Assembly (NCBI GenBank): GCA_963793115.1 | Contig: CAWBYV010000020.1 | Location: forward strand, 262,124-326,123 | Length of the DNA: 64,000 bases | Direction: 5' to 3' | Source: an uncultured delta proteobacterium | GTDB taxonomy: Bacteria > Desulfobacterota > Binatia > Binatales > Binataceae | Shown: positions 9,349 through 64,000 of the stretch, piece by piece | Position numbering within the stretch: position 1 is the first letter of the stretch | Layout: every line of letters starts with the position of its first letter | Notes under the pieces: model-generated | Told to the model about the DNA's origin: nothing | Databases searched by the model: none | The model's input: only the letters and a program-made list of their open reading frames with translations | Program-made: the position numbers and the translations under genes

Positions 9349-9380
9349 TCTGCGGGGAGCTATACCGGGAATATAGAGCA

Positions 9381-10370
9381 ATGCCGAAAGATTCGTTCGA
9401 TCGCGAAATCGATTACCTCAGGATCTCGGTAACCGATCGCTGCAATCTGCGCTGCGTCTACTGCATGCCGCTGGAGGGGCTGCGCTTTCTGCCGGGTCCC
9501 GAGATGCTGAATGCGGCCGAGATCGAGCAGGTGGTGCGCGCTGCGGTCGGCGTGGGATTCCGCAAGTTCCGGCTGACCGGCGGTGAACCGACGCTGCGCG
9601 CCGACCTGCTCGAAATTGTCGGGCGCATCGCCTCGGTGCCGGGCGTGCGCGACCTCGCGCTCACGACCAACGCAATCCTGATGACGAAGCTGGCGCGGCC
9701 GCTGCGCGACGCGGGGCTTGGCCGGATCAACGTCCATCTGGACAGCCTCAACCCCGAGATTGTGGAGCGGCAGATGCGATGGGGGCGCTTCGAGGAGATC
9801 TGGCGCGGCATCATCGCGTGCGAGGAAGCCGGGCTCACGCCGATCAAACTCAACGCCGTAGTGGCGGCGGGCTACAACGAAGGCGAGGTCGCGGACCTGG
9901 CGCGGCTGACGATCGAGCGCGACTGGCACGTGCGGTTTATCGAGCTGATGCCGCTGGGCGGCGGCGAGTGCGCGCGGCTTTCGATTCAGCGCTACGTCTC
10001 GAATATCGAGACCCGGCGGCGAATCGAGCGCGAGCTCGGGCCGCTGACGCCGATCGAAGCGGGCAATCCCTATGACGAGGCGCGCAACTATCGACTCGCC
10101 GGCGCGCGCGGCGTGGTGGGATTCATCAGTCCGGTGAGCGAGCCGTATTGCGGGACCTGCAATCGGATGCGGCTCACCGCCGACGGCAAGTTCCATCTCT
10201 GCCTGCTCAACGACGACGAGCTCGACGTCCGCGGTGCGCTTCGATCGGGCGCGGACCTCGAAGCGGTCGGGCGGATTTTGATCCGCGCGGTAGGTGGGAA
10301 ACCCACCGGCCATCATCTGCTCCAGGGCCGCTCGACGCGCGAACGCTCGATGTACCAGCTCGGCGGATAG
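9381..10370 (+). CDS. moaA: GTP 3',8-cyclase MoaA (radical SAM)
   Basis: CNLRCVYCMP radical-SAM cluster, C-terminal CGTCNRMRLTADGK second cluster, 329 aa. Confidence 0.92.
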   Translation: MPKDSFDREIDYLRISVTDRCNLRCVYCMPLEGLRFLPGPEMLNAAEIEQVVRAAVGVGFRKFRLTGGEPTLRADLLEIVGRIASVPGVRDLALTTNAILMTKLARPLRDAGLGRINVHLDSLNPEIVERQMRWGRFEEIWRGIIACEEAGLTPIKLNAVVAAGYNEGEVADLARLTIERDWHVRFIELMPLGGGECARLSIQRYVSNIETRRRIERELGPLTPIEAGNPYDEARNYRLAGARGVVGFISPVSEPYCGTCNRMRLTADGKFHLCLLNDDELDVRGALRSGADLEAVGRILIRAVGGKPTGHHLLQGRSTRERSMYQLGG

Positions 10371-10410
10371 TGCGCGCGGCACTGGCACGGCAGCATCGAA
10401 TTCCTGTAAT

Positions 10411-10484
10411 CAAATTCCTGCGAGCAAATTTGAAGCAAGCAAATTTCGAGCAAGTAAATTTTAGGCAAGTAAATTTCAAGATGG
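10411..10484 (+). repeat. five tandem 15-bp AT-rich units (YAAATTTNRAGCAAG) abutting the maoC RBS
   Basis: Units at 10411, 10425, 10440, 10455 and 10470 were read directly. Confidence 0.8.
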
Positions 10485-10491
10485 AGCAACC

Positions 10492-10962
10492 ATGACAACA
10501 GCTATTCGCCTGGATGATATGGAGGGCCTGCGCGCGAAGATCGGCAAGGAGTGGGGTCCCTGGAGCGATCCGATCGAAGTGACTCAGGAGAAAATCAACC
10601 GGTTCGCCGACGTTACCGGCGATCACCAGTGGATTCATGTCGATATCGAGCGATGCAAAAAGGAGAGTCCGTTCGGAGGCCCGGTCGCCCACGGTTTTCT
10701 GACCGTGAGCCTGCTGCCGGCATTCAGGGGCCATGACGAGTGGACGATCACCGGGTTCAGCAACGTCGTGAACTACGGCGCCAACAAGCTGCGCTTCATC
10801 TCGCCCGTGCCCGCCGGAGCCAAGGTTCACGCGCGCTCGCGATTGGTCGCGGTCGAGCCGAGACCGATGGGCGTGATGGTCACTCGCGAGACCGAGGTGA
10901 GTGTCGTCGGCAATGAGAAGCCCGCGTTGGTCTACGAGGGACTGGCGCTGTTCGTCCGCTGA
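10492..10962 (+). CDS. MaoC-like (R)-specific enoyl-CoA hydratase, hotdog fold
   Basis: FADVTGDHQWIHVDIERCKKESPFGGPVAHGFL hydratase motif, 156 aa. Confidence 0.85.
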   Translation: MTTAIRLDDMEGLRAKIGKEWGPWSDPIEVTQEKINRFADVTGDHQWIHVDIERCKKESPFGGPVAHGFLTVSLLPAFRGHDEWTITGFSNVVNYGANKLRFISPVPAGAKVHARSRLVAVEPRPMGVMVTRETEVSVVGNEKPALVYEGLALFVR

Positions 10963-11029
10963 CGCGCCGTGGTTTGCCGACCAATGACCGGCGGGACACC
11001 GGTCCTACTTCATGTAGAGGGACCGGCGT

Positions 11030-11100
11030 CTTACGCCTCTCCCTGACCAGGGAGAGGCCGGCGGGCGCTTGCGTCAGCAAGCTGCGCGCCGGGTGAGGGT
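11030..11100 (+). repeat. REP family 1 copy
   Basis: CTTACGCCTCTCCCTGACCAGGGAGAGGCCGGC...GCCGGGTGAGGGT, nearly identical to the copy at 942-1003. Confidence 0.75.
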
Positions 11101-11127
11101 ATCCGCGTTTCTTACTTGGGAGAACAC

Positions 11128-12024
11128 ATGGCCTACGGACAGATTCTCTACGACGTCAGCGACAACATCCTGACCATCACGCTCAACCGGCCCGAGAAGC
11201 TCAACGCGTTCACCGACCAGATGATGGCCGAGATGCTCGACGCGCTCGACCGCGCCGACGCGGACGACGACGTGCGGGCGATAATCGTGACTGGAGCGGG
11301 GCGCGGATTTTGCGCCGGCGCGGATCTCTCGGCCGGAGGCCGCGCGGCCTTCGATCACGCCGCGCGTCCCGAAAAGCAGGGCGCGATACGCCCGGACGGC
11401 AGCGTCGATTGGAGCAACGAAGCGGTCCGCGACGGCGGCGGGCGCGTGGCGTTGCGCATCTTCCGCTGCCTTAAACCGATCATCGCAGCGGTGAATGGAG
11501 CCGCGGTGGGAGTCGGGGTCACGATGCAATTGCCGATGGACGTCCGCATTGCCGCCGATGACGCGCGCTTCGGCTTCGTTTTCGCCCGGCGCGGGATTGT
11601 GCCCGAGGCCTGCTCGGCTTGGTTCCTGCCGCGGGTAGTCGGAATCTCGCGGGCGCTCGAATGGACCTTCAGCGGGCGGGTATTCCCGGCCCAGGAAGCG
11701 CTCGACGCCGGCTTGGTCAGCAAACTCTACAAAAAGGAGGAACTGATTCCAGCGGCACGCGCCCTGGCCCGCGAGATCGCGGACCATGCCGCGCCGGTGT
11801 CGGTGGCGCTGACCCGCCAGATGCTCTGGCAGATGCTCGGCGCGAACCATCCGATGGAAGCGCACAAGATCGACAGCCGCGCGATCTTTGCCCGCGCCGC
11901 CTCGGCCGACGCGAGGGAGGGCGTCAGCTCGTTCCTCGAAAAGCGGCCGGCAAAGTTCACCAACCGCGTGTCGAAGGACATGCCGTCATTCTTCCCGTGG
12001 TCAAAGGAGCCCAAGTACGAGTGA
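11128..12024 (+). CDS. enoyl-CoA hydratase/isomerase (crotonase) family protein
   Basis: ITLNRPEKLNAF...VTGAGRGFCAGADL oxyanion-hole motif. ATG 11128 is preferred. Confidence 0.85.
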   Translation: MAYGQILYDVSDNILTITLNRPEKLNAFTDQMMAEMLDALDRADADDDVRAIIVTGAGRGFCAGADLSAGGRAAFDHAARPEKQGAIRPDGSVDWSNEAVRDGGGRVALRIFRCLKPIIAAVNGAAVGVGVTMQLPMDVRIAADDARFGFVFARRGIVPEACSAWFLPRVVGISRALEWTFSGRVFPAQEALDAGLVSKLYKKEELIPAARALAREIADHAAPVSVALTRQMLWQMLGANHPMEAHKIDSRAIFARAASADAREGVSSFLEKRPAKFTNRVSKDMPSFFPWSKEPKYE

Positions 12025-24839: not shown

Positions 24840-24886
24840 AACCCTCGGTTGCGTGAGATTAAACACGCATGATACCGTTTTAGGAG

Positions 24887-26822
<1,936 letters not shown>

Positions 26823-30408: not shown

Positions 30409-31351
30409 ATGTGGAGTGATAGGCTGCCCAACGTTGTGACCCGCAATGCGGGCTTGCGCGCGATCGCGCTGGTGCTGGCGGTCGGACTTTGGCTGTTCGT
30501 CAACGCCGGCCAGCACGAGGCGCAGATCTCGCTCGATGTGCCGGTCAGCTATCGCGGCCTGCCGCAGGACATCATGATCGTGGGTCAGCGTCCCGACTTC
30601 GTGCAGCTTCAGATCTCGGGCCCGCGCACGCTGCTTTCGCTGCTCGATCCGGGCAGGCTGGAGCTCCGGCTCGACCTCGCCGGGGTCAATCCCGGCCAGG
30701 TTTCGTTCCGGCTCAATCCGGAAATGTTCAACGTGCCACGTCAGACCAATGTGACGCAGATTTCGCCCTCGCAAATCGTGCTCGACGTGGATCGAATCGC
30801 GGCCCGCGAGATCCCGGTTCATCTCGACATCGTCGGGCCGGTGGAAAAGGGCTTCACGATCGGCTCGGTCGAGCTGACGCCGCCCGCGATCGCCGTCAGG
30901 GGACCGGCTCGCGAAGTCTCGCGGCTCCAGCGAATCGACACTGAACCCTTCGACGTGAAGGGCCTCACCGGCGAGGTCGATCGCGTGGTCTCGCTCGCGA
31001 TGTCGCCGGATCCGGTCAAGTTCTCGGCCCACGAAGTCGAAGCGCGCGTGAAGCTCGACGAGGTGCTGGGCGAGCGCGAGTTCCGCACGGTCGAGGTCAA
31101 GGTGCGCGGGCCCGATCGTAAGTACCGGCTTTACACTCGCGATGTGAACGTCACGGTGCATGGGCCGGTTCGCAAGCTCTCCAGCTTGAGTCTCGCCGGC
31201 ATGGTCTACGTGGACGCGAAGGGCGAGCAGCCGGGCACCTACGAGTTGCCGCTCCAGGTGGGAGCTGCCGGACGGCTTTCAGGTCGTGCGGGCGAGACCC
31301 GACAAGGTAAGGTTGCGCATCTTAAACTTGAAGGCAGGCATAAAGAGTTGA
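30409..31351 (+). pseudogene. cdaR: CdaA regulator CdaR (YbbR-domain protein); extra G near 31260 fuses it in-frame to glmM in the track
   Basis: N-terminal TM segment plus repeated YbbR-like beta domains. Removing one G from GTGGGAG restores [30 protein letters not shown] and TGA 31349-31351. Confidence 0.8.
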
Positions 31352-32728
31352 GTGATACACGACGCAGGCTGTTTGGTACCGATGGGGTGCGCGGGGTGGC
31401 CAACGTCGAGCCGATTACCTCGGAGACCGCGCTCAAGCTGGGCCGTGCGCTGGCCCACGTGTTCAGGAACGCCGCCGGCAGGCATCGCCGGATCCTCATC
31501 GGCAAGGACACCCGGCTTTCGGGCTACATGCTGGAAACCGCGATGGAGTCGGGTATCTGCTCGATGGGCGTGGACGTATGGCTGGTCGGCCCGCTCCCGA
31601 CTCCCGGTATCGCTTTTCTGACCAGAAGTATGCGTGCCGACGCCGGAGTCGTGATTTCCGCTTCTCACAATCCCTTCGAGTACAACGGAATCAAATTCTT
31701 CTCGCGCGATGGCTTCAAGCTCGACGACGAGACCGAGCTCGGGATCGAGGAGCTGGTGTTCGACGAGGGCAAACTGGCTCATCTGCCGGGCCGGCCCGGG
31801 CGAGATTGGCAAGGCCGCCCGAATCGACGACGCGATCGGACGCTACCTGGTGTTCCTCAAGGGCTGCGTGCCGCGCACCATAATGCTGGAGGGGCTGAAG
31901 CTGGTGATCGATTGTGCCAACGGCGCCGGCTACAAGGTCGGTCCCGACGCCCTGGAGGAGCTGGGCGCCGAGGTCGTCCGGATTGGCGCCGAGCCCGACG
32001 GCAAGAATATCAACCTCGATTGCGGCGCACTCTATCCCGGCCGCCTGGCCGAGACCGTGAAACAGACCGGTGCCAACGCCGGATTCGCGCTCGACGGCGA
32101 CGGCGACCGCGTCGTGATGGTGGACGAGCGCGGCGAGCCGATGGACGGCGACGACCTGATGGCGATCCTCGGCCTCAAGCTTGCCGCCGAAGGCAAGCTA
32201 AATTCCAACACCGTGGTTGCGACCGTGTTGAGCAATCTCGGGTTGGAGCAGGCCCTGAAATCGGCGGGCGTGCGCCTGGTGCGCACTGAGGTCGGCGACC
32301 CGGCGGTGGCGCGCGAGATGCGCAGCAACGGATACAACCTGGGCGGCGAGCAGTCGGGTCATATAATCCTGACCGACTATTCGACCACCGGCGACGGGCT
32401 TATCACGGCGCTCACGGTTCTGGCTCACATGGTCGAAACCGGCAAGCCGCTCAGCGCATTGCGCGCGATGCGCCGAGTGCCGCAAGTGCAGGAAAACGTC
32501 CTGGTGCGCGAGCGAATTCCGTTCGCCAGCATGCCCGACGTGGAACATCTGATCGCGTCGGTGGAGAAGCGCCTTGCGGCCCATGGGCGGCTGCTGGTGC
32601 GCTACTCGGGTACCGAGATGATGGCGCGCGTAATGATCGAGGGCGAAGACGCGGCCGAGATCGGCGCGCTCGCCCGCGAGATCGGCGCTGCGATCCAAAA
32701 GCGCGCGGCCTCGCATCGTGAGCCTTGA
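31348..32728 (+). pseudogene. glmM: phosphoglucosamine mutase GlmM; frame break near 31795
   Basis: TTG 31348 overlaps the restored cdaR stop. FGTDGVRG, the active-site [16 protein letters not shown], then (after the shift) [22 protein letters not shown]...FALDGDGDR...GGEQSGH. Confidence 0.9.
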
Positions 32729-34275: not shown

Positions 34276-35835
34276 GTGAAGCTCATCACTGCAGCGCAAA
34301 GCCGCGAGCTCGATCGGCTCAGCCAGGACAAGTATGGCGTGCCCTCCTACGCGCTGATGACGCGCGCGGGAGAGGCGGTCGCCGACGCTGCCCTGCGCCG
34401 ATTCGGCGCGGCGGTCCGCGGCGGGGTCCTGATCGTCGCGGGCAAGGGCAACAACGGCGGCGACGGGATGGTCGCGGCGCGCCGGCTGCAGGCAATCGGG
34501 CGTGTCGGTCCGCGCGGTGCTGCTCGCCCGACGCAGCGATCTCAAGGGCGACGCGGCCAAAGCGAGCGCGGAATTCATCGGCCACGGCGGCGCGATTGCC
34601 GAAGTCGTCGAGGAAGGCGACCTTGCGCCGGCGCTTGCGGCTCGCCCTGGATTGATCATCGACGCGATCTTCGGCACCGGACTCAACGCCGAAGTGACAG
34701 GACTCCCGCGACGCGCGATCGAGGCTGGTCAACGAGACGCAGTCGGCGATCGTCGCCGTTGATATCGCTTCGGGCGTGAACTCCGACACCGGCGCGATCA
34801 TGGGCGCCGCAGTCAGAGCGTCGCTGACTGTGACCTTCGGGTTTGCGAAGTTCGGCCACGTTTCGTATCCGGGTGCCGCGATGTGCGGCGAGCTCATCGT
34901 CGCCGAGATTGGATTCGCGCCCGAGGCGATAGACGAGATCGCGCCACGCGGACGCTTGATCGAACGCGACGACGTAGCGCCGCTCGTCCATCCGCGCCCG
35001 GCGAACTCGCACAAGGGCTTGTACGGCCATCCGCTGGTCATCGCAGGATCTGTGCGGCAAGGCCGGCGCGGCGATTTTGGTGTCTCGCGGGGCGCTCAGA
35101 ATGGGCGCGGGGCTGGTGACCGCGGCGATTCCCGAATCGGTGTCCTCAATTGTCGCGGGCGCGCAGGCCGAATTGATGACGGAGCCGATGCCCGATCTTA
35201 AGGGGCACTTCGACGACCGCGGGAGCGTCGCACGTCTAGCCTCGCTCGCCGGCGGCAAGGACGTTCTTATCCTCGGTCCCGGAATCGGCCTCAGCGACGA
35301 CACCAAACATCTCGTCGAGTGGCTGATAACCGAGGGTGCGCGGCCCGAGCGCCCCCTGCTGATCGATGCCGACGGACTCAACGCGCTCGCCGCGATCGGT
35401 TGCGATATCCTCAAGCGCGCGCGCGGCCCGGTCGTGCTCACGCCCCATCCGGGCGAGATGGGGCGCCTGCTCGGCACTTCGGCCGCAGCCGTCAACGCGG
35501 ATCGCATTTCGGCTGCGAGAGAGCTGGCGCAGAGCACGGGCGCGCATGTCCTGCTCAAGGGCGCACGCACGGTTATCGCCGCAGCGGACGGCACGACCTA
35601 TGTCAACTCGACCGGGAATCCCGGGATGGGGACGCCGGGGATGGGCGACGTGCTGTCGGGGATCGTCGGCGCGCTGCTCGGGCAGAAGATGAATCCGCTC
35701 GACGCGCTGGCGTTGGGAGCGTTCGTTCACGGTGACGCCGCCGATCGCGTCGCGCGCCGGCTCGGGCCGGTCGGTTATATCGCCGGCGATCTGATCGACG
35801 AATTGCCGTGCGCGATGGCCGCGCTGATCTCGTGA
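34276..35835 (+). pseudogene. nnr: bifunctional NAD(P)H-hydrate epimerase/dehydratase Nnr (YjeF N+C); frame breaks near 34495, 34745 and 35070
   Basis: GKGNNGGDG (epimerase), IIDAIFGTGL, HKGLYGHPLVIAGS, LTPHPGEMGRL, GNPGMGTPGMGDVLSG, spread over four track fragments. Confidence 0.85.
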
Positions 35836-38696: not shown

Positions 38697-40434
38697 ATGG
38701 CGGCGACTAAAAAAATCGCAGATTTACGACACCACGCTGCGCGACGGATGCCAGTCCGAGGACGTTTCGCTCACCGTCGAGGACAAGCTGCAGATCGCCG
38801 AGCGGCTCGACGAACTGGGGATCGACTATATCGAGGGCGGATGGCCCGGCTCGAACGATCGCGACGCCGCGTTTTTCACCGAGGTCAAAAAGCTCACGCT
38901 GCAGCATGCGAAGATCGCGGCGTTCGGCTCGACGCGCCGCGCCGGCGTCAAGGCTGCCGCCGACCGCAATCTTCAGCTGATGCTGAGCGCCGACACGCCG
39001 GTCGCCACCGTGGTCGGCAAGACCTGGGACCTGCACGTGCGCGAGGCGCTGCGAATTTCGCTCAAGGAGAACCTCGAGATCCTGCAGCGACACGATCGCG
39101 TATCTGAAGAAGCGCGTCGACGAAGTGATCTTCGACGCCGAGCATTTTTTCGACGGCTACATTCTCAATCCCGACTACGCGATCGCAGTGCCTCAACGCG
39201 CCGTCGACGAGGCCGGCGCCGATCTGATCTGCCTGTGCGACACCAACGGCGGCCGCCTGCCGCACGAGATCGAGGCGGCGGTGCGCGCCGCGCTCGCGCG
39301 TCGGTGCACTGCCCGCTCGGAATCCATTGCCATAACGATTCCGAAGTCGCGGTCGCCAATACCGATCGCGGCGGTCCGCGCCGGCGCGACGCAGGTGCAG
39401 GGCACGATCAACGGGCTCGGCGAGCGCTGCGGCAACGCCAATCTGATCTCGGTCATCGCCGAACCTGCAGCTCAAGCTCGGCTATCAATGCGTGCCGCCC
39501 GCCAAGCTCAAGAGCCTGCGCGAGACCTCGATGCTGGTCTACGAACTGGCCAATATCACGCCCATCCGCGCCAGGCCTACGTGGGCCGCAGTGCTTTCGC
39601 GCAAAGGGCGGGCTGCACGTCTCGGGGATCCAGCGCAACATCCGCACCTACGAGCACATCGATCCCGGCGCTGGTCGGCAACGACCGCCGGGTGGTGCTG
39701 TCGGAACTCTCGGGCCGCGCCAATATCCTGTACAAGAGCCGCGAGTTCGGCTTCGACATCGAGCTGACCAACGAGACAGATCGCCGACGCTGCTCGAGGA
39801 GCTCAAGCGGCTCGAGAGCGAGGGCTATACCTTCGACGGCGCCGACGCCTCCTTCGAGCTGCTGATGCTGCGCACGCTCGGGCTGGCGCAGGAGCACTTC
39901 AACTTCGTCAGCTTCCGCGTCTTCGACGACAAGTGGCATGAGGATCAGGCGCCGTTCAGCGAGGCGGTGGTGGTGATCGAGGGTCCCGACGGCCAGCGCA
40001 CGCGCAATTCGGCGATCGGCAATGGGCCGGTCAACGCGCTCGATTCGGCGCTGCGCAGCGCGCTGGTGCCGTACTATCCGAGCGCTCGAGCGCGATGCAG
40101 CTGGCCGACTACAAGGTCCGCGTGCTCGACAACGGCGCCGGGACCGGCGCGCGGGTGCGCGTGCTGATCGAATCGACCGACGGCAAGACGCCGATGGGGC
40201 ACGGTCGGGCTTTCGAGCAACGTGGTCGAGGCGAGCTGGCAGGCGCTGGTCGATTCGATCGAGTTCAAGCTGCACAAGGACAACCGTGCGAGGCCGCACG
40301 TCGACCGGCTCGCCAAGACGCAACGGCATCGCGGCCGCGACGCCGAGCAGATCCCGGACGCGCCGGCTGGCGACGGTGCAGCGGCCCTCAACGTAAGCCA
40401 GAGCGGCGATCTGAAGAGGACGAGCGCGCCATGA
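38697..40434 (+). pseudogene. cimA: (R)-citramalate/2-isopropylmalate synthase family (CimA-like); many frame breaks and an uncertain 3' end
   Basis: Dropping one A from the A7 run at 38709-38715 gives KKSQIYDTTLRDGCQSEDVSLTVEDKLQIAERLDELGIDYIEGGWPGSN. Later HCHND, GERCGNANL, LESEGYTFDGADASFELL and [15 protein letters not shown] lie in other frames. Confidence 0.8.
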
Positions 40435-51765: not shown

Positions 51766-51821
51766 TCAGGAGCGGTGGGCGCTAGTATCTTAGTTAGTAT
51801 GGGTGAAGTGCCGCGAACTGG

Positions 51822-52934
51822 ATGACTCACGTGACCCTAAGAACTACTCACGAATGGATTCAAAAGCTCGCGGCAGAAAGCGACCTAATCGCTGACATGC
51901 GGCTTGAAACCATCCTCAAGAACGCCAACCTCGACACAGACGCATTTAATCTCGCTAATTCCGACGCCCATTGTAACCTCGTTGTCCGCGCGATCAGCGT
52001 GCTGCTGACTAAGGACTTTTCGTCGAAAGAGAACGCTCGCGACCTTCTTTGCAACCTGATCAAGCCACCTCAGACGTACGGCGCTTTCGCGGAACTCGCT
52101 GCGTACGACTGGCTGGCCCGCTGTCATGTGGAAATTACAACTCAAGTCGCCATGAACCCGAGCGACGTTCTTGGTACGAAAGGCTCGACGCTCGACGGCA
52201 AGATCGAGCATACCGGCACCTATTTTGACGTGAAAGCTTTCGGCTCTAATGGACGGCTCGCTCAGCGGTTGAAGGAACGGTTGGAGAAAGAAATCCCCGG
52301 TGAACAGGTTCTTATCGAAGAGTCGTGGGACCTTTCTTTTGAAACGTTTCGCGATTTGATCGAGGCTGCACCAAGTATTGCCGCTGAACTCAAGCAAAAA
52401 CGGATGGTGCGAAAGGGCCGGATGCATATCCGCCTTCAACCTAAGAAGGCCGTGACGGTTTCAGCGCGCAGTGTCGATCCCTATTATCTTGCCAAAGAGA
52501 ATGCGCTCTACGCTTTCAGCGACGCAAAACAATTTACCAGGAACAGTCCATTCATACTGATATTCGTGGTGCATCCTTGGTTCAATGCGCTTTCGATCCA
52601 CAATGATTTTGCGGGCGTAGATACGACTTTCACTCGTTCGCTTGCCCGTCGCGCTTTCATGCAATTCTCCACGGATTCCAGGCTTCTTGCCTCCATAACC
52701 AAGCATGTTCCGCCAGCCGTGACCCTTGCCGATGCTTCGCGGCTTCTGTCCGCGATTTTCTTTGTCAATGTGTGGCCTAAAGAGGCAGATCCAAACATTA
52801 CTTATGCCATGCCTTCATGGCTGTATTTGAACCCGCGCGCTACACATCGTTTGACCCATGGAAGTGTGACGCTTTTCCGCGCTCTAAGCCCAAATACTAC
52901 CTACATCGACGACTTCTCCAGCGATGATTATTGA
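51822..52934 (+). CDS. hypothetical 370-aa protein with a PD-(D/E)xK-like motif (low-GC orphan)
   Basis: E91 (FAELAAYDW) ... D125 (LDGKI) ... D136-V-K138 (YFDVKAF). A sampled 60-nt line is 47% GC. No family recognised. Confidence 0.55.
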   Translation: MTHVTLRTTHEWIQKLAAESDLIADMRLETILKNANLDTDAFNLANSDAHCNLVVRAISVLLTKDFSSKENARDLLCNLIKPPQTYGAFAELAAYDWLARCHVEITTQVAMNPSDVLGTKGSTLDGKIEHTGTYFDVKAFGSNGRLAQRLKERLEKEIPGEQVLIEESWDLSFETFRDLIEAAPSIAAELKQKRMVRKGRMHIRLQPKKAVTVSARSVDPYYLAKENALYAFSDAKQFTRNSPFILIFVVHPWFNALSIHNDFAGVDTTFTRSLARRAFMQFSTDSRLLASITKHVPPAVTLADASRLLSAIFFVNVWPKEADPNITYAMPSWLYLNPRATHRLTHGSVTLFRALSPNTTYIDDFSSDDY

Positions 52935-52936
52935 AG

Positions 52937-53985: not shown

Positions 53986-55413
53986 CTAATTGCTGGTGTA
54001 ATACGTCACTAGCACGTTCACCGAAACATTGCCGCAATTAGTACATGCGCCGAAGGGCGGCCAGCCGTTCCACCACATCAACTCCGCCGTCGAATTGAAC
54101 TCTATGGGGTCGAGGATGTGTAACCTGTAAGCGCCCGCCGTGGTGGGGAGACCAACCGGACCCGTTAGCGCAGTCACGCCCAGATAGTCAGACGCGAACA
54201 GGCCGGGGGCGAAATAAAACGAGCTACCGAAGTAGTCTTCAGTGCCCGACGAATCGTGGTTCAGGTTGCCGTCGATCAACCACTGCATAGGGCTTTCCAG
54301 CCCACTCGGCATTCCAGCGCCGCTGAAATATGTGTAGACCTCCCAGATGACGCCGGGGCCGTTCGATGTGCTGAAGAGCGGGATGGTCGGAGCTGTGCCG
54401 CAGCCGCCGCCCGAATTCACGCAACCATTCCCAGGTGCGATCGTCAAGCTTTGATCGACCGCGTGCAGATGCGAGTAGCGACCCCAGTTGAGTCCGCTGT
54501 TGGCGTGCCACCCAACGTCCGTCCAGATGTTATCGAATACGTCCGGGTTGATCAGAGTGACCCTCACATGGGTTCTAAAAGGCGCGGTTAGATAGATTGT
54601 AAAGTTTTGCCCAAAGCTTGATGTGCCGAAACTCAGATATCGCGAGCGGAATCCAGCGGAGCCGCGTGCGGCTACCAGGTCGAAGAGATTGACGTTGACC
54701 GAGGGCGTTGCACAGGACGTGTTCAAGTCTGCGTCCTGGCAAATTTGTAGCGTGCCGCCGGTGCCCGTGTTGTTGATGACTGAAATGAAGTCGATTTCGC
54801 CCGACCCGGTGTAATCCAGGAGGGTGAGCGCGGCACCAGACACCTGCTTCAGCTTGGTCGAATACGCAATGCCCGGGTCGCCGGGCGGCCACGCGCCGGG
54901 CCACACGCTCCCGGTAGGGCCCGTTGGGCCCGCGGGTCCCGGTGGCCCCTGCGCTCCGGCGGCGCCAGTAACACCGGCGAGTCCCGGTAGACCCTGCGGC
55001 CCAGCCGCGCCCGTTGCACCGGTAAGTCCCGTCGGTCCCTGAGGTCCCGCAGCACCCGTTAGACCGGCCGGCCCCGGTGGCCCTTGCGCTCCGGCCGCAC
55101 CCGTCGCACCGGCGAGTCCTGGCGGTCCCTGAGGTCCCGCCGCAGCCGATGGACCCGCAGGTCCCGATGGGCCCTGCGGTCCGGCAGGGCCTGTCGCACC
55201 GGTGGGCCCGGCGGGCCCCGGGTCATTCGCCGACACCGAGACGAAAGTCTCGGATTTCTTGCACCTGCTCGGATTTGTGACCCCGCGCACGGCGCCAGTC
55301 TTCTTATTCACGCAGACATTGATCGCCTGAGCGTCGGCCGCCGATGCGCGCAGGGTCGCTCCGAATACCAGCGCTACGACGATGGTCGCTTGCCTCCAGC
55401 GGTGATCGTCCAT
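53986..55413 (-). CDS. secreted collagen-like (G-X-Y) protein with a C-terminal DUF2961/GH172-like jelly-roll domain
   Basis: Signal peptide, [10 protein letters not shown]...C head, about 33 GXY triplets, then a domain with [10 protein letters not shown] and ...[19 protein letters not shown] 55413 is preferred over the track start. Confidence 0.8.
54910..55218 (-). repeat. collagen-like G-X-Y triplet repeat coding region
   Basis: [40 protein letters not shown]...GPTGPTG, with one interruption. Confidence 0.85.
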
Positions 55414-55743
55414 CGGTGACACAAGTATTCCTGTGCGCAAAACTGCGTTACTCAATCTATGTGGGCAATCTGCCCAGCCGTCTATATCGATACGATCTGC
55501 GCGGTCTAGCAATTCAGATTCGCACAGCCCGGTCTGGAAGTGAACCGAATCCTGGCTTGAAACCCGGTCTCCGATCGCCCTCTCCGACGCACTTCGGGAG
55601 TCCGAAAAGTGCTTGTAAAGACTGGAAATTATACTAATTGACGCTAGAACGGGCCTTGGTGTAGTTAAGAGGACTCGGCCTATCGGCAGGAGGGTGCGTA
55701 CAGTCTTGTTTCCTATCTCCGGGCGTCTCGGCGGCGAGCACGT

Positions 55744-58700
55744 TTGACAGTGCGACGTTTGACAACGCGGGGATTGTCAACCGGGCTCTGCCTCGCCCTC
55801 GCCGCGGTTCTCATCTGCGTCTTCCTTCTGGCCGGGGTTTCGCGGCGTGCAGGGCGACAATCGCGGCCTGACCGCCCCGCGGCGAAGGCCGCGCCGACCC
55901 TCGCGACCGGCTCGTCGCGGAAATCGGCAGTCATCGCGCGCCTCAGACACGAGTACGGCAGACTGCCGCTCAGCTTTGAGCCGAGCCGGTCGGAGTCCGA
56001 GGGCGTGAAATTTCGGGCTCGAGCGGGGAATCTGTCGGTCGAGTTGACTCCGCGCGAGGCGATTTTTGTGCAGTCGGGCGACGGCAGCGAGGACCGCCCG
56101 CGACGATTGCCCTTCGCCGGCGACGGTCTCGAGCAAGTCGCCGGGCGCGGACCGAGCGCGGGCGCGACTGGGCGCGCTCGGGAACATCCGGTGATTAGGA
56201 TGCGACTCGAGGGGGCGAACGCTTCGGCGCGAATCGAAGGCGAAGACAAGCTGCCGGGCGTGGTCAACTACTTTATCGGGGACGATTCGAGTCAATGGCG
56301 CGTCGGCATACCTACTTACGCGAGAGTGAAATATCGCCAGGTCTATCCCGGTATCGACCTGGTTTATTACGGCAACCATCGCCAACTGGAATGCGACTTG
56401 AACCTCGCGCCCGGAGCGAAGCCTGACGAAATCAGACTATCGTTCCGCGGCACCAGATCACCTCAAGATCGACCGGGATGGAGACCTCGTGGTCGGCGCG
56501 TCGCGCGACCGGATCGTGATTCACAGGCCGGTCGCGTACCAAGAGTTCAGCGGCGCCAGGAGGAAAGTCGCGAGTAGCTACAGAATGCTCGGGCGCTCGG
56601 GCGTCGGCGTCGAGGTTGCCTCGTACGATCGGAGCAAGCCACTGACTATCGATCCGACCGTGAGCTACGCCACTTTCCTGGGCGGCAGCTTCATCGACGA
56701 AGCCGATGCGCTGGCGGTCAACAGTACGGGCAGCGCATACATCACGGGGTTTACCTGTTCTGCCGACTTCCCGATTGCTCCCGGAACGTCCGTGCCGCAA
56801 CCCGGCTTCGGCGGCCTTTGCGACGCGTTCGTCACCAAACTCAGTCCCGACGGTCATCAGTTGCTTTACTCTACCTATCTGGGCGGGGGCGGGGCGGACC
56901 GTGGAAACGGTATTGCAGTCAACCAGTCGGGCGCTGTCTACGTCACCGGCACGACCAGCGGCCACTTTCCGGTCACGGCCGGCGCCGCGCAGACGGCCTA
57001 CGGAGGCGGCAGCAGCGACGCTTTCGTAAGTAAGATCAGCGCCGGCGGTTCGACGTTGATCTACTCGACATATCTCGGTGGAGAGGCGATCGAGTCCGGT
57101 CAGGCGATCGCGGTGCCTCAGGGTTGTTTGTCCAGTTGCGACGCTTTCGCCGTGGGCTACACACTTTCATTTCGATTTCCGGCCACCGCTGGTGCGTTCC
57201 AGACTGCCAACGGCGGTACCGGCGATGCGAGCGACGCTTTCATCGCGCGGGTCAACTCGTCAGGTACCGGTCTGAAATACGCTTCCTATTTGGGTGGCCA
57301 CGAGGGCGACGGAGCCTTTGCAGTCGCGGTTGACTCTGCCGGCGACGCTTACGTCGGGGGCGTCACCGACGCGATAGGCGGCAACAATTTTCCGATCACG
57401 ACGGCCAGCGCTGCACAGAAGGTCTTCGGCGGCACCGCCGACGGATTTGTCGCGAAGATCAATCCCACCGGCACCGCGCCTCTGATTTACTCTACTTATC
57501 TGGGCGGTAGCGGCTTCGACTCGGTACTAGGAATAGCAATTGACTCATCCGGCGCTGCCTACGTAACTGGAATGACCTCTTCAGCCGACTTTCCTACCAC
57601 GGCCGGCGCTTTCCAGGGAACTTTCGGCGGCGGCTCCGGTGACGGCTTTATCACCAAACTTGCCGCTGGTGGCGCGTCGCTGGTCTATTCCAGCTATCTG
57701 GGCGGCTCCGGGAACGATATCGGGCGCGCGATCGCTCTGGACTCCACCGGCAATGCCTACATCAATGGAAACACCAGTTCGTCCGATTTCCCCGCGGTGA
57801 GCCCGGTGCAGGCAATCCCGGCCCCGAACGGACAACTGGTGATAAGCCGCAACGACGGCGAGACTTTTTCGGCAAGCGGACTAAACCCGAGCGCCCGGCT
57901 CTCTCAACGCTTTGGCGGTTGACACGAGCGCGTCTCCGCATGCGGTCTACGCGGGCAGCGCGCGAAACGGCCTGTACCGGAGCACCGACGACGGAGCGAC
58001 ATTCAACCTGACCGGGCTCACGGCTCCGATCGGTCCCGGCGGGATCGCGCTGGATTCCACCTCGGGAAGACTCTATGTCGGCAGCTCACAAGGGTTATCA
58101 GTGAGTACCGACGGCGGTATCTCATTCGAGAGTCTTCTTTTCGGAACGCTGATCTCACCGGTGTTTGTGAATGCTGCCAGTCAACCCGTGGAGCTGTACG
58201 CAGGCTCGTCAGCGGGCTTGCTCGACAGCACGGACGGAGGAGCGACGTTCAGCCCGGCCGGTCTCCCCGCCGCGACCCGGGTGTTGTCGATCGCCTCCGA
58301 TCCCAACCGCAGCCCTCCTGTTTTGTACGCCGGCACGAACCAGGGAATCTTCGCCAGCACCGACGGGGGCGTCACGTTCCGTGCCACCTCGATGAACTTC
58401 CAACCCGCTTTCTCGCTCGCGGTCAACAGCAGCGAGTCGCCCTCAGTCCTGTATGCCGGCCTCGACATCGGGCTGATCAGAAGCACTGACGGCTTCACGA
58501 CCTTTACCAGTCCCGTCAGCGTGATCGATCTCGCGATCTATGACCTGGAAGTGGATTCATCGATCACTCCGTCGCGGGTGTTTGCCGGCGGTCAGCTCGG
58601 TGATCTCGGCTATCTGGCGCGCAGCGACGACAGCGGCCGCACCTTCCGGCTCATCAGTGACAACACGGACTATCTGCCGGCGGTGACGCGGATCGCCCTG

Positions 58701-60306
58701 GATGGAGACGCGGCCCAGGGCGTGTTCGCCGGCTTGTTCCTCGATTCCAACTCGGCGGTGTCGCAGGTAAGCTCGGACGGCTCGACCCTGCTGTTCTCTT
58801 CGCTTTTCGGCGGCTCCAATGAAGAGTTCGGAACCGGCATCGCTGCGGCCGTCGCCTCGCCCGATTCGGCGGTGCTGTACGCGGTCGGAGGAACCGCCTC
58901 GTCGAGCGACTTTCCGACTACCTCGAGCGCCGCGCAGCCGAACGCCTCGGGCCCGATGAGCGCTTATGCTCTTCAGAATCTCCGGCCTGTCACTGACACC
59001 GACTCCGACCCCGACTCCTACTCCGACGCCGACACCCACGCCAACGCCGACTCCGACGCCTACGCCCACACCGACCCCGACTCGAACGCCGACACCGACA
59101 CCGACGCCCACACCAACGCCGACTCCGACACCGACGCCGACTCCCACTCCCACACCAACTCCGACCCCTACTCGAACGCCGACTCCCACACCGACACCGA
59201 CCCCCACGCCTACGCCGACACCGACACCGACACCGACTCCCACATCGACTCAGACGCCTACGCCGACACCGACGCCGGGTGGTCCGACTCCCACACCGCC
59301 GCCTATAGATAGCGACCAGTTCCCGCTCGAGCCGCCCGTAGCCCCCTGGGGCGAGCTACGCGTAGCGGCCTACAAGCAGAAGACTATTGGAGCGGGTAGC
59401 AGTCTGACGCTGCTCAGTATCACGCCCGGGACCTGCGCAAGCCCGACCTGTGGCCACCTGGCGTATGTGAACGTGATTACCGGCTCACCTGCAACTGACA
59501 CGACCAACACGCTAACGGTCTTCCGGGATGGAGAAGGCACGGCGTCGGTCAATTCTACTATCGCCGACTTGGCCGCGGCGCGTGGCATGTCTTCGCAGTC
59601 CACCGCCGGCGCGCAATACTACCAGAATCATCTTTGGACCTACGAAGCCGGCTCGGCATTCTTCGGCCTCCCAACGTCACGGATGTACTCGCTCCTGAAC
59701 GCACCGTTCACCAGCAGCCTCCAGGTCGTCTACAACAACAACAGCACTTCTTCCGTAACAGCATGGTTCAACATCGGCTACTACGTCTATCCGAGCACCA
59801 GCGTAGTTAATTGGGGCCGTTACTCGCATCTCCACGCGGTCAACGGGGCGGGTTCGGCCACTGCTTTCTCAGCGATCCAGCTTGTCAACGTCTCGAGCGG
59901 CGGTCCGGGGGCGCTGTGGAGCGTATACATGTTGTTCAACGTGGCGAATGTGAACTCCTATGAAGGTCCGATACAGTACCTGGTCAACGGCGAGAGCACG
60001 CCGGGCCTCACCTCGTCGGGCACCGAAGACTACTTCGGGCAGGACTTCTACTTCGATCGCTGTTCAAGTTCCCAAATCTGGATTCAGGACAAGTTCGGTT
60101 GCACGTACGCGAATTCAGGCGCGAGCGCCAGCACCATAGTTGGTGCGTACCGCATTCATTATCCGAACGAAGACCCGCCGATTTGGAACTCATCGTTCAT
60201 TCTCGACTGGCTCAACGGACTCGCTGGATTCGGAGAGGGAACGCCGCCCGGTCTTCCGGGCAGCGCCACCATCAATTACCTCGTGGAGTACTACACCAGC
60301 CAATGA
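55744..60306 (+). pseudogene. giant surface protein: anchor + SBBP beta-propeller repeats + Asp-box (BNR) propeller + (TP)n linker + DUF2961/GH172-like C-terminal domain; frame breaks near 56455, 57890 and 58970
   Basis: LPLSFEP...YPGIDLVYYGN...PLTIDPTVSYATFLGGS. Repeated YSTYLGG..D.G..IAVD..G.AYVTG.T.S.DFP. Six SxDxGxTF boxes. About 100 aa of TP repeats. C-terminal [14 protein letters not shown]. Four track ORFs join into one if three 1-nt shifts are allowed. Confidence 0.7.
58996..59304 (+). repeat. (Thr-Pro)n low-complexity linker, about 100 aa of hexanucleotide repeats
   Basis: ACnCCn repeats with periodic TR interruptions. All frames are open (DS/DT on +, GV on -). Confidence 0.85.
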
Positions 60307-60334
60307 TTCGTCCAGGAACATCGGGAGCAGAGGC

Positions 60335-61402
60335 ATGAGACGCACAATCGTTGCAGCTATCGCGCTGCTGGCCCTGGCAGGCTCGGCCAGCGCAACTTCG
60401 ATCCAGTTCCCCCTCCAGCATCCGGTGGATGCCTGGGGTGAGTTGCTGATCGCAACGCCGATCGCAACGCCGTCAGGCGGCAGCGCAGCGGCCTACAAGC
60501 ACGTGACTATTGCAGCGAATAGCAGTCTGACGCTGCTCAATATTACGCCCGGAACCTGCGCAATCCCGACCTGTGGCCATCTGGCTTATGTGAACGTGAT
60601 CACCAGCTCCCCTGGGACCGACGGGACCAACACGCTGACGGTCTTCAGAGATGGAGAGGGCACAGCGTCGGTCAATTCTACGATCGCCGACTTGGCCGCG
60701 GCGCGGGGCATGTCTTCGCAGTCCACCACCAGCGTCCAGTACTACCAGAACCATCTCTGGACCTACGAAGCGAGCAACACAGCGGGGACGTTGCGGATGT
60801 ACTCGCTCCTGAACGCACCGTTTACCAGCAGCCTCCAGGTCGTCTACAACAACAACAGCGCTTCTTCCGTAACAGGATGGTTCAATGTCGGCTACTACGT
60901 CTACCCGAGCACCAGCGTAGTGAGCTGGGGCCGTTACTCGCATCTCCACGCGGTCGAGGGAAACGGTTCGCCCGCCGCCCTCGCTTCGCTCCAGCTTGCC
61001 AACGTCTCGGGCGGCGGCCCGGGGGCGCTGTGGAGCGTATACATGTTGTTCAATGTGGCGAGTACCGGCTCCTACGAAGGTCCGATACAGTACCAGGTTG
61101 ACGGCGAGAGCACGCCGGGCTTCAACTCGTCGGGCACCGAAGACTACTTCGGGCAGGACTTCTACTTCGATCGCTGTTCAAGTTCCCAAATCTGGATTCA
61201 GGACAAGTTCGGCTGCACGTACGCGAATTCAGGAGCGAGCGCCAGCACCATAGTTGGTGCGTATCGCATTCATTATCCGAACGAAGACCCGCCGACCTGG
61301 AACTCGTCGTTCGTTCTCAACTGGTTCAACGGACTCGCTGGATTTGGCAGTCCGGGCAGTGCCACCATCAACTACCTCGTGGAGTACTACACCAGTCAGT
61401 AA
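60335..61402 (+). CDS. secreted stand-alone DUF2961/GH172-like jelly-roll protein (paralog of the giant protein's C-terminus)
   Basis: Signal peptide MRRTIVAAIALLALAGSASA. The rest is collinear with 59320-60306. ATG 60335 with GGGAGCAGAGG upstream. Confidence 0.8.
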   Translation: MRRTIVAAIALLALAGSASATSIQFPLQHPVDAWGELLIATPIATPSGGSAAAYKHVTIAANSSLTLLNITPGTCAIPTCGHLAYVNVITSSPGTDGTNTLTVFRDGEGTASVNSTIADLAAARGMSSQSTTSVQYYQNHLWTYEASNTAGTLRMYSLLNAPFTSSLQVVYNNNSASSVTGWFNVGYYVYPSTSVVSWGRYSHLHAVEGNGSPAALASLQLANVSGGGPGALWSVYMLFNVASTGSYEGPIQYQVDGESTPGFNSSGTEDYFGQDFYFDRCSSSQIWIQDKFGCTYANSGASASTIVGAYRIHYPNEDPPTWNSSFVLNWFNGLAGFGSPGSATINYLVEYYTSQ

Positions 61403-61600
61403 TGGCGCCGCGCAGTCGGCTCGAGCCGTCCATAGCAACATCACGGTCAACGGCCTAGCCTGGCAATACGCGGACTCCGAGAACCAGATGCGATGCCTGT
61501 CAGTGAGTTTTCGTTTATCGTTTCGCGGCCTAGCGGCGCTACGCAAGGCGTGTGCGCCAGACTCGCGGGCCGGCCTTGGAAGGCCGGGATCAGAAGATTG

Positions 61601-64000
61601 ATGACACGCCGAGGTGACATCGCCTTCAAGCGGGGGCCAGCCGTGCGGATTGTAGCTGGCGTAGCTGCCACCGTACTTCTTGCGGCTTTGTTTGGCTCCC
61701 GATCTGGGCGTTCGGTCGTTCCGGGACCGGTCGATCGGCGAGGCGTGGCGGACCAGGCTGCTGCGCGTGACAAGATCGACGGGCTGCCACTGTACTTTGA
61801 GCGCAACGCCGGGCAGACCGATCCGCGGGTTCATTTTCTTTCTCGCGCGGGCGCTTTCAGCCTGTTCCTGACCGAGACTGAGGCGGTACTGGTACTTGCG
61901 CAGAATCCGGCGCTGCGGAAGGCGGCCAGCACGACGACGCCTGTGGGAGCCGTAGCTGCGCCGCGCCATGAAGCGGCGGTGCTGCGGATCAAGCCGATTG
62001 GAGCGAACCCAAAGCCCCGGATCGATGGGATGGATCGACTGCCCGGCCACGTGAACTATCTGCTGGGCGACGAGCCGTCGAAATGGCGCACCAACATCGC
62101 GACCTATGCGCGCGTCCGCTATCGCTCCATCTATCCCGGTATTGACCTGGTTTACTATGGTTCGCGCGCCGCGCTCGAGTACGACCTGATCGTCGCACCT
62201 GGCGCCGACCCGGGGCGGATTGCCCTCGCAGTTGACGGGCCGGCGACGCTTCAGTCGATCCGGCGGGGGACCTGATCCTGGGCACTCCCACTGGCTATGT
62301 AACGATGCGCAAGCCGCTGATTTACCAGGAAGGCGCCGCCGGCAGCCAGCGAAAGATCGAGGGGCGCTACGCCGTGACGGACCTGCCAGGCGGCTCGGGA
62401 AAGAAGGCAGTTGCGATCCGGGTTGCCGAATACGATCGCAAGCTCCCGCTCGTGATCGATCCGCAGTTTGTCTATTCGACTTATCTCGGCGGCAACGGTA
62501 ACAACAAGACCGGCACGCCTGAGTCGTTCACGTCCTTCTTCGGCATTGAGCCGTCGTCGATGCCGGCAAGCTTCAACTTCTCGGATTATACGTTCGATAT
62601 CGCACTCGACTCCAAGGGCAATATATATGTAGCCGGAGTTGCCGACTCTCCCAACTTTCCAACCTTGAACGCAGTACAGCCGACGGACAGCACCACGACT
62701 ACGACTCCGAACGCGTTCGTCGCGGAGCTCAACCCGAGCAAGTCCGGAGTGGCTTCGCTGGTCTACTCGACGTACCTGGGCGGGAGCGGCGACAGAACGA
62801 GCGGAGGAGCCGATGGCGACGAAGCGCACGGAATCGCCGTCAACGGCTCGGGCGACGCCTATGTGGCCGGGCTCACCTACTCCACTGATTTTCCCCATAC
62901 CGCCGTCGCCTTCGAGGCCACAAACAATGCGGCCGCGGCGAATATCAATAATGGATTCGTCACCGAGCTCAATTCCTCTGGCGGGATCGTCTATTCGACC
63001 TTTATCCACGGACGCAACGGCGCGGCGGCCAGCAGGATAGCGATCGAGCCCGGATGTTCAACTAACTGCGCGGCCTATGTCTCGGGCAGCACTACGTTAA
63101 CCGATTTTCCCACCAGGAACGCCTACCAGAGCTCCGACCCGGATTTCCATTTGAACAGCTCTGCCTACCTGCTGGTCCTTAAGGGCGGGGGCTCGGCACT
63201 CGCGTACTCCACCTACTTCGGCGGCAGCGGCACCGGCGATGGAAGGTGACGCCGCGCTTGGCGTCGCGGTCGATTCGACGGGTCACGCTTATATTACGGG
63301 GTTGGCTTATTCCACCGATTTGCCTACCCGTAATCCTTATCAACTAAATAGCAAGAACAGCTTTTCAAACTCGAGCGCGTTCGTGGCGGAGTTCGATCCT
63401 ACCCAGAGCGGCGACGGGTCGCTGGTGTACTCGACGTATCTGGGGGGCGAGGGCGGCCTGGTCGCGGGCGATATAGGCACGAATATCACTTTGGACAATT
63501 CGGGGCATATCTTTGTGACGGGAACGACCTATTCGTCAATGTTCCCGGTCACCGCCAATGCCTATCAGCCATTCAACGAAGCTTTTGCGGGCTTCGGATC
63601 GAATGCTTTTGTCTCCGAACTGGACGACTCGATGACAGGCAGCAGCCAACTTGCGTATTCGACGTATTTGGGCGGGAGCGGATACCCGTTCATCTCCAAT
63701 CCTATCTTCTTCGTGGTGATGGCCGATGCGGCGACCGGTATCGCCGTGGACGGTTCAGGGCGCATCTTCGTATCCGGCGGCACCTTTTCGGCGGATTTTC
63801 CTACCAGCGCCGGGGCCTGCCAGCAGCAGAACAATGCGAACCTGGACGTGAACCCGAACGCCGGCGGCGGGACCAACGCGTTCGTGAGCGAGATCGATCC
63901 GAGCCGGACCGGCAGCAACCAGCTCGTGTTCTCGGGGTACCTGGGCGGCAGCACCCTCGATATGGCCGGCGATATCAAGCTCGACGGTTGCGGCAACGTG
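61601..64000 (+). pseudogene. second SBBP-repeat surface protein (3' end outside the window); frame breaks near 62255 and 63240
   Basis: Same N-terminal module as at 55744 (LPLYFERNAGQ...YPGIDLVYYGS...EYDLIVAPGADP), then YSTYLGG/DFP repeats. The third fragment at 63239-64000 is open to the window edge and is absent from the track. Confidence 0.7.

Follow-up and report, generated by a model that had tools for sequence, protein, structure and literature searches.

The locus and its shared domain

The right-hand end of the window (the whole 64,000-nucleotide stretch of contig CAWBYV010000020.1 that was analyzed, from an uncultured member of the Binataceae) contains four neighboring genes, here designated A to D, and the products of the first three end in versions of the same domain. 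Gene A (53986..55413, minus strand, read from an ATG) encodes a 475-aa protein with a predicted signal peptide of 25 residues (55339..55413, minus strand; n-h-c layout with an A-x-A site, cleavage before A), a short N-terminal segment with two cysteines, a collagen-like stalk, and a C-terminal head (53989..54864, minus strand) in which the characteristic motifs take the form ESPM...SSGTEDYF; these assignments come from the open reading frame (ORF) and Pfam, and for the head also from an AlphaFold2 (AF2) model and Foldseek. Gene B (55744..60306, plus strand) is spread over four reading frames in this assembly and corresponds to 1519 aa when repaired, comprising an N-terminal hydrophobic anchor or signal, a DUF7948 domain, an SBBP propeller, an Asp-box propeller, a Thr-Pro (TP) linker, and a head (59317..60303, plus strand). 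Gene C (60335..61402, plus strand; 355 aa) consists of a predicted signal peptide (MRRTIVAAIALLALAGSASA, with the site before T) and the head alone (60404-61399, plus strand), which is compared with that of gene B below. Gene D (61601..64000, plus strand) runs off the window and is partial; Pfam identifies DUF7948 and SBBP in it, and it is a paralogue of the gene B scaffold. An original prediction, made from the sequence alone, had described gene A as a collagen-like stalk protein, gene C as a bare secreted copy of the domain, and the gene at 61601 as a second SBBP protein, and all three descriptions hold, with a signal-peptide-like N-terminus and then the domain by itself in gene C.

The gene C protein is an exact match to a public-database protein (P0001), and its closest homologue (P0002, 82% identical) carries the NCBI name DUF2961 protein and comes from a Candidatus Binatales metagenome-assembled genome. 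A contig look-up with the exact gene C protein returned no locus, and the orthologue P0002 led to the syntenic loci L001–L005, which provide the orthologues used in the comparisons below.

The C-termini of the A, B, and C proteins align over ~330 residues, with the YYTS[QN] and GTEDYF-type motif blocks invariant in all three; the A head is 34–38% identical to those of B and C, which are 84% identical to each other. The alignment confirms the proposal that three neighboring genes share one ~330-aa C-terminal domain, and the possibility that the three C-termini are unrelated falls away. The assignment of this domain to DUF2961/GH172 is likewise borne out, as a Pfam search with DUF2961 (PF11175) gives 59.7 bits for A, 55.9 bits for B, and 58.4 bits for C against a gathering score of 27, and the family motif cited for it (EGDEK.FVDGE...GTGTEDYF) is real and is seen in the database protein P0031. 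In the newer Pfam naming, precomputed for the orthologues, the two halves of the domain are GH172_1st (PF28588) and GH172_2nd (PF11175). Searches of NCBIfam and PADLOC gave no match for the head.

GH172 is a young CAZy family (2021–2023) that is known from cytoplasmic or periplasmic single-domain furanosidases. Single-sequence searches of the PDB gave only weak matches with gene C (E 0.17, to 8ic8 and 7v1v) and no match with the gene A head. A profile built from the three window copies and 15 homologues (the A3 profile) matches every one of the four solved GH172 proteins, 4kq7 (4e-43), 7v1v (7e-43), 8ah3 (1e-41), and 8ic8 (2e-29), and covers both jelly-rolls. An AF2 model of gene C (predicted local distance difference test score, pLDDT, 79; predicted template-modeling score, pTM, 0.83) has the same four structures as its top Foldseek matches (8ah3, 4kq7, 8ic8, and 7v1v), with template-modeling (TM) scores of 0.64–0.70 (0.70 for 8ah3/4kq7) and E values of ~1e-14, and a model of the gene A head (pLDDT 84, pTM 0.87) matches 8ah3 with a query TM score (TMq) of 0.81 (E 5e-17), 4kq7 with 0.79, 7v1v with 0.75, and 8ic8 with 0.73. 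The jelly-roll fold originally proposed is thus supported by solved GH172 structures for both models. The next structural neighbors of the gene C model, at TM scores of ~0.4, are the double-jelly-roll capsid proteins PRD1 P3, PM2, and STIV, and DUF2961 trimers have been reported to resemble viral capsomers (PMC8812541, Krupovic et al.). Both models end on the last beta-strand and lack the C-terminal helix that in Dg79, BACUNI_00161, and αFFase1 builds dimers of trimers (PMC8605356; bioRxiv 10.64898/2026.08.13.744632). The domain of A, B, and C is a divergent GH172 (DUF2961) double jelly-roll, with its Pfam family and fold in common with the characterized proteins αFFase1 (B. dentium, 7V1V), ExoMA2 (8IC8), DgGH172a-c/Dg79 (8AH3), and BACUNI_00161 (4KQ7). 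Those proteins are single-domain enzymes of sugar-utilization loci, whereas the window proteins are predicted to be exported, and A and B join the head to a collagen stalk and to propellers, respectively.

Catalytic residues and the proposed activity

The active site of GH172 enzymes lies at protomer interfaces and the trimer is the minimal catalytic unit (bioRxiv 10.64898/2026.08.13.744632; PMC10115798). In αFFase1, E291 is the nucleophile and E270 the acid/base, and the E270A, E291Q, and D292A/N mutants are inactive; subsite -1 is completed by W267, W298, and Y187' of the neighboring protomer, W267 contributing to the -1 and +1 subsites alike, N272 is a Ca2+ ligand, and a Y187F mutant is still active (Kashima et al., PMC8605356). 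Direct phmmer alignment places E270, E291, D292, and W298 of αFFase1 opposite E248, E269, D270, and F276 of gene C, respectively. The equivalents of E248, E269, and D270 are invariant in A, B, and C and their relatives (alignments A2, A3, and A7), and across 148 diverse sequences E248 never varies and the conservation of E269 and D270 is 90% or more. In sequence alignment the positions of W298 and Y187' both correspond to Phe in the window heads, which resemble the characterized enzymes in the Glu nucleophile, the Glu acid/base, the adjacent Asp, the GTEDYF motif, and the presence of aromatics at these two positions.

The original prediction had pointed to the replacement of the acidic pair of an EGDE motif (EGPI and ESPM in the window) and suggested from it that the module may bind a ligand instead of hydrolyzing one. 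Alignment to a characterized GH172 enzyme does not support this suggestion, because E270, E291, and D292 of αFFase1 are all conserved in the three copies, and the third and fourth positions of E-G-x-x, being ND in αFFase1 (EGND) and EI in ExoMA2 (EGEI), both of them active, are not catalytic. Relatives with several tandem copies of the domain are instructive in the same regard: the first copy has E/E/(D,E) at the triad positions, and later copies have lost the triad (for example P/D/Q, K/S/S, or Q/A/A) while the fold is still recognizable. The triad is thus unnecessary for folding, and its retention in A, B, and C argues for catalysis.

The reading that we favor, to which we assign a probability of roughly 0.55, is that A, B, and C are three exported proteins with a trimer-dependent retaining glycosidase head, which is displayed on a fiber in A, tethered to propellers in B, and free in C. 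All three would be retaining exo-glycosidases with a single class of extracellular glycan as their target, and by family precedent the substrate may be a furanoside such as alpha-D-arabinofuranoside (alpha-D-Araf) or alpha-D-fructofuranoside (alpha-D-Fruf). Gene C would be the free, soluble form of the head.

An alternative that we regard as rather unlikely, and that follows the original prediction, is that the heads are non-catalytic and form a trimeric lectin or adhesin for a surface glycan, which A would present on a fiber and B on a propeller protein, with C serving as a soluble competitor or decoy. Strict retention of the nucleophile, the acid/base, and the D292 equivalent in three copies of 35% identity and throughout the subfamily argues against it, as do the loss of the triad in copies that are clearly degenerate and the variability, in active enzymes, of the positions on which the case for binding had been built. 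Several observations nevertheless weigh against a glycosidase, and some of them favor a lectin directly. The heads are just 14–20% identical to characterized GH172 enzymes; in sequence alignment W267 of αFFase1 falls opposite Gly or Ser and the Ca2+ ligand N272 opposite Pro, so that neither the tryptophan platform nor the calcium ligand is conserved, and the substrate specificity is likely to be different. There is no sugar transporter, kinase, or other carbohydrate-active enzyme (CAZyme) adjacent to the locus, the neighbors being housekeeping genes. The locus is therefore not a classical polysaccharide-utilization locus; this weakens simple nutrient scavenging and keeps a binding role alive. 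Relatives of the head are found on phage tail fibers (see below), where the head could equally well serve for binding alone and where the tip is the classic receptor-binding position, and the collagen region of gene A weakly resembles that of the collagen-like adhesins Lcl and Scl. Export itself is predicted from signal peptides and a gene B membrane anchor that were read by eye from the translations.

We note separately that chains with two to five tandem GH172-like domains are represented by P0024, P0025, P0029, P0032, P0036, P0041, P0050, P0062, P0066, P0079, P0090, and P0095, and that in most of these the first copy alone keeps the Glu/Glu/acid triad, with P0024 keeping it in all three of its copies. 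Each such chain might amount to a covalent pseudo-trimer that has one active site, reminiscent of the 'extra jelly-roll' solution of Dg71.

Collagen stalk, propeller scaffold, and frame breaks

The collagen-like region of gene A (54904..55218, minus strand) contains ~35 triplets by regular-expression count and scores 52.6 bits with Pfam Collagen (PF01391). The G-X-Y repeats form runs of 8 and 26 triplets with a single AAA triplet between them, and a spacer of ~15 residues lies between the collagen region and the head. Orthologues in L001 and L002 have an identical architecture, and that in L001 has 35 uninterrupted G-X-Y triplets. The AAA triplet (GPS-AAA-GPQ, at ~55135-55143 on the minus strand) departs from the G-X-Y pattern and is either a real interruption of the helix or another sequence error.

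The collagen triple helix is an obligate trimer with a rise of 0.29 nm per residue. Because collagen is itself an obligate trimer, the gene A fusion would, if it is triple-helical, supply both trimerization and a spacer of ~30 nm, holding a trimeric head off the cell, and such a stalk would fit well with the trimer as the minimal catalytic unit of GH172. Globular trimeric heads are found on other collagen-like proteins of bacteria, including BclA of the Bacillus exosporium, Scl1/2, and Lcl, and C1q/TNF-type heads are comparable. Gene A resembles these proteins in joining a G-X-Y stalk directly to a beta-sandwich or jelly-roll of a kind that trimerizes and in its predicted signal peptide and predicted surface display, but its head is a double-jelly-roll GH172 domain with the triad and not a single C1q/TNF-like jelly-roll or V domain. 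No LPXTG or exosporium-targeting motif was seen in gene A, and the NCBIfam equivalogs for Lcl, Scl1, and Scl2 match only its collagen part, at 74, 60, and 52 bits compared with cut-offs of 500, 325, and 400. By pairing an obligate-trimer stalk with an obligate-trimer enzyme, gene A may be the enzymatic equivalent, in bacteria, of fibers of the C1q or BclA type, and the locus offers a compact system in which to ask how the quaternary structure of GH172 is enforced.

Gene B and gene D share a different scaffold. DUF7948 (PF25778) scores 118.6 bits in B and 139.2 bits in D, and SBBP (PF06739) 92.8 and 44.7 bits, respectively; both are contiguous in the intact orthologues. In gene B, DUF7948 (55981..56660, plus strand) is split by the first of three frameshifts, with profile positions 3-149 and 165-214 falling in successive frames, and in the L001 orthologue it is contiguous and scores 191.8 bits. 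The SBBP beta-propeller repeats follow (56660..57860, plus strand, approximate limits; 92.8 bits in 4 stretches), and then an Asp-box (BNR) propeller (57850..58990, plus strand, approximate limits) with a BNR score of 31.4 bits, a weak Sortilin-Vps10 match, and five strict S-x-D-x-G-x-T-F motifs. A (TP)n linker of ~100 residues (58996..59295, plus strand; identified by translation and regular expression) joins this DUF7948-SBBP-Asp-box module of ~1080 aa to the head. Secreted modular CAZymes with Pro/Thr linkers are familiar from the cellulases of Cellulomonas, and gene B has the same order of non-catalytic module, (TP)n linker, and putative catalytic module; it differs in that the non-catalytic part is a double propeller of ~1080 aa and not a small carbohydrate-binding module (CBM), and in that a GH172 module needs a trimer. 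The flexible linker would tether the head to an N-terminally anchored or secreted double-propeller protein, in which the DUF7948-SBBP-Asp-box module is probably concerned with binding or positioning.

The region 55744-60306 had been described as one protein of ~1500 aa with SBBP, Asp-box, and (TP)n parts. Pfam and the motifs bear out this architecture, but the region is not a single ORF: it is made up of four ORFs on the plus strand, which overlap and lie in frames 1, 2, 0, and 1, and the breaks between them had been overlooked. Three-way nucleotide alignment locates three 1-nt insertions on the plus strand: an A at ~56455 (within a few bases), a C in a CCC run at ~57894, and an A in AA at ~58977; all remaining indels relative to the orthologues in L001 and L002 are multiples of three. 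In each of these loci the orthologue is one intact ORF (1759 aa in L001, 1737 aa in L002) that encodes DUF7948, SBBP, Asp-box, and DUF2961 domains. Gene D has a 1-nt deletion at ~62238 and a 1-nt insertion at ~63243, bringing the number of frame-breaking indels in B and D to five, and the coding sequences of gltX, SDR, A, and C have none over the ~4.5 kb that were aligned.

This contrast led us at first to suspect that B and D are pseudogenes, in which case the domain would be deployed by A and C only and the propeller format would be vestigial; a protein fragment of 239 aa (P0006) from the same 337-kb contig is also in the database. We now consider this explanation very improbable. Four further genes of the window, ftsH (24884-26819), glmM (30409-32725), nnr (34698-35832), and a leuA-like gene (38980-40431), are each split across frames by Pfam analysis of ORF pairs, with the AAA domain and Peptidase_M41 of ftsH in different frames, domain I of glmM in one frame and domains II-IV in the other, and YjeF_N of nnr in one frame and Carb_kinase in the other. 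Because essential genes for single polypeptides cannot all be broken, we read the assembly as indel-prone and the breaks in B and D as errors, and the frame breaks of gene B are almost certainly of this kind. Removal of exactly the three inserted bases restores a stop-free ORF of 1519 aa, whose identity to the orthologue is 89% across the propellers and 77% in the head, and all gene B segments remain 84–89% identical to the intact orthologue. The ratio of nonsynonymous to synonymous substitution rates (dN/dS) relative to L001 is 0.31 for the B scaffold, which is consistent with a functional gene, 0.34 for the B head, 0.37 for C, 0.21 for the A head, 0.19 for gltX, and 0.10 for SDR; the GH172 genes are thus under purifying selection, with dN/dS values of 0.21–0.37. 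ORF-based readings of this window accordingly need frameshift-aware translation. For mapping frameshifts across the whole window, a frame plot of G+C content at third codon positions (GC3) is too noisy alone, and Pfam on ORF pairs was decisive.

Comparison of the tandem copies provides some indication of how the head came to be on more than one scaffold. The heads of B and C are 84% identical within this genome, compared with 80–83% for orthologues between genomes and 80% for the B heads among these, and locally they are much closer within the genome than between genomes (93% versus 80%, and 81% versus 59%), suggesting partial gene conversion between tandem copies. The L001 orthologue of gene D (1359 aa) has a TP-rich linker and a C-terminal Ig-like HYDIN/VesB domain in place of GH172, and the linker DNA of gene B cross-matches the linker of this orthologue. 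From such similarities we infer that modules have been exchanged through duplication, with recombination in the repetitive DNA of the linkers; the head would probably have moved between scaffolds when an adjacent C/B copy was duplicated and recombination occurred in the linker.

The B orthologues in L001 and L002 also contain an additional Cys-rich module of ~250 aa between two TP linkers, which is absent from the window copy. In L001 it lies at ~8200-8950 (aa ~1170-1420 of 1759) and has no Pfam match, and the indel, flanked by repeat DNA, comprises the entire module.

Relatives of the head and the genomic setting

An exhaustive profile search recovered 6,983 cluster representatives at E <= 1e-3, of which 917 are at E <= 1e-30. 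We took a census of domain fusions in the best 77 of 148 representative sequences, all 77 of which contain DUF2961. The partners in this set are Laminin_G_3 (4), Collagen (2), and TIG, DUF2793, fn3, BACON, and others (1 each), and one representative, P0028, is the cluster of gene A itself; collagen-GH172 fusions are thus rare but recurrent. No fusion to SBBP or DUF7948 occurs among these best 77 of 148 representatives, and the propeller fusion therefore seems to be clade-specific. An earlier survey (Krupovic, Makarova, and Koonin 2022, PMC8812541) found that ~9% of DUF2961 members carry additional carbohydrate-binding or enzymatic modules, the partners being CBM, ConA/LamG, Fn3, BACON, GH32/43, lyase, and lipase domains; the words collagen, propeller, and SBBP are absent from its text (PMC8812541). 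A literature search, limited in scope and short of the whole literature, found nothing linking GH172/DUF2961 with tail fibers or collagen-like stalks. Neither the GH172 family and its fold nor the occurrence of multi-domain members is new; the collagen-stalk and propeller scaffolds, and notably the match of the stalk to a trimeric catalytic unit, are not described in the literature that was searched.

Many close representatives have N-termini that match PHROG tail-fiber or tail-protein families, outside any collagen region. P0169 (49% identical to P0026) is encoded at 9006-11233 of a 58.7-kb contig (L007; European Nucleotide Archive ERZ27251177 k141_1478210), flanked on one side by genes for the large terminase subunit (phrog_2, E 6e-21) and for a portal protein (phrog_156, E 1e-11) and on the other by one for an internal virion protein, and it is directly preceded by a paralogous fiber gene with the same N-terminal module. 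The gene for P0136 comes after one for a polyvalent protein of 2252 aa (LPD22/PBECR1). These fiber-type proteins all keep the catalytic triad unchanged, and they match the A3 profile with E values of ~1e-82 to 1e-49 (P0169, P0026, and P0136). They have in common with the window proteins the same head subfamily, placed C-terminally after a fiber or anchor module and with the triad kept, and differ in having a tail-fiber N-terminal module and phage genes around them, where the window genes have predicted signal peptides and a chromosomal context. In L009 (9180-11132), as in L007, a GH172-like head with an intact triad is present at the C-terminus of a tail-fiber-like protein.

The DUF2961 family has been reported to be absent from viruses (PMC8812541). 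The gene C protein has no match among the 50,697 phage records of INPHARED, and a fiber-type head finds two 'Bacteriophage sp.' records there, MT835583.1 and MT836379.1. We rejected MT835583.1 (L006, marked UNVERIFIED) as a phage, as it is a Bacteroidota polysaccharide-utilization locus with SusC/SusD, BNR, DUF2961, and GH3; its mislabeling is a trap for any count of viral GH172 proteins.

These relatives raise the question of whether the locus is the remnant of a prophage or tailocin, with gene A a domesticated tail fiber. A stalk with a C-terminal trimeric head is the layout of a tail fiber, gene A is matched by PHROG tail-fiber families, and tail-fiber-like proteins in a true phage contig carry related heads. 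However, the PHROG matches of gene A do not extend beyond residues 64-180, which are low-complexity collagen sequence, and so provide no evidence of phage origin, the head of the window genes has no PHROG family, and gene A has a predicted signal peptide and no virion-attachment N-terminal domain. The surroundings are equally hard to reconcile with a prophage: the order gltX, small ORF, SDR, A (on the opposite strand), B, C, D is conserved in related Binatales genomes, the housekeeping genes era, der, guaA, and gltX, plus SDR, lie upstream of the A-D locus, and with gltX, SDR, and SBBP neighbors, chromosomal synteny in at least three assemblies, no phage genes, and no match in the INPHARED records, we find a prophage origin scarcely credible. 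Downstream of the locus, the genes in L001 have no Pfam family.

A broader suggestion, which we offer as speculation and think unlikely, is that the GH172-like double jelly-roll is an exchangeable 'fiber-tip' module of phage tail fibers and cellular fibers alike, and that the Binatales locus encodes a surface apparatus, with heads on a ~30-nm collagen stalk, on a propeller tether, and free, that cuts glycans at contact range in the envelopes or exopolymers of neighboring cells. Were this so, a capsid-like double-jelly-roll trimer would already be present in the virions of tailed phages, offering a route by which a cellular double-jelly-roll glycosidase could enter virus particles. The tail-fiber heads extend a family reported to be absent from viruses and suggest a new class of candidate phage depolymerases. 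For the exported glycosidases that we favor at the A-D locus, the same genes may provide a compact system for learning which extracellular glycan is attacked or remodeled by the Binatia, an abundant uncultured soil lineage.

Elsewhere in the window, positions 51792-52936 constitute a 1.1-kb insertion relative to the syntenic L001, with a lower G+C content (~0.58). It contains a 370-aa ORF (51822-52934), for which searches of Pfam, NCBIfam, and PADLOC gave no match and which is possibly a recently acquired gene.

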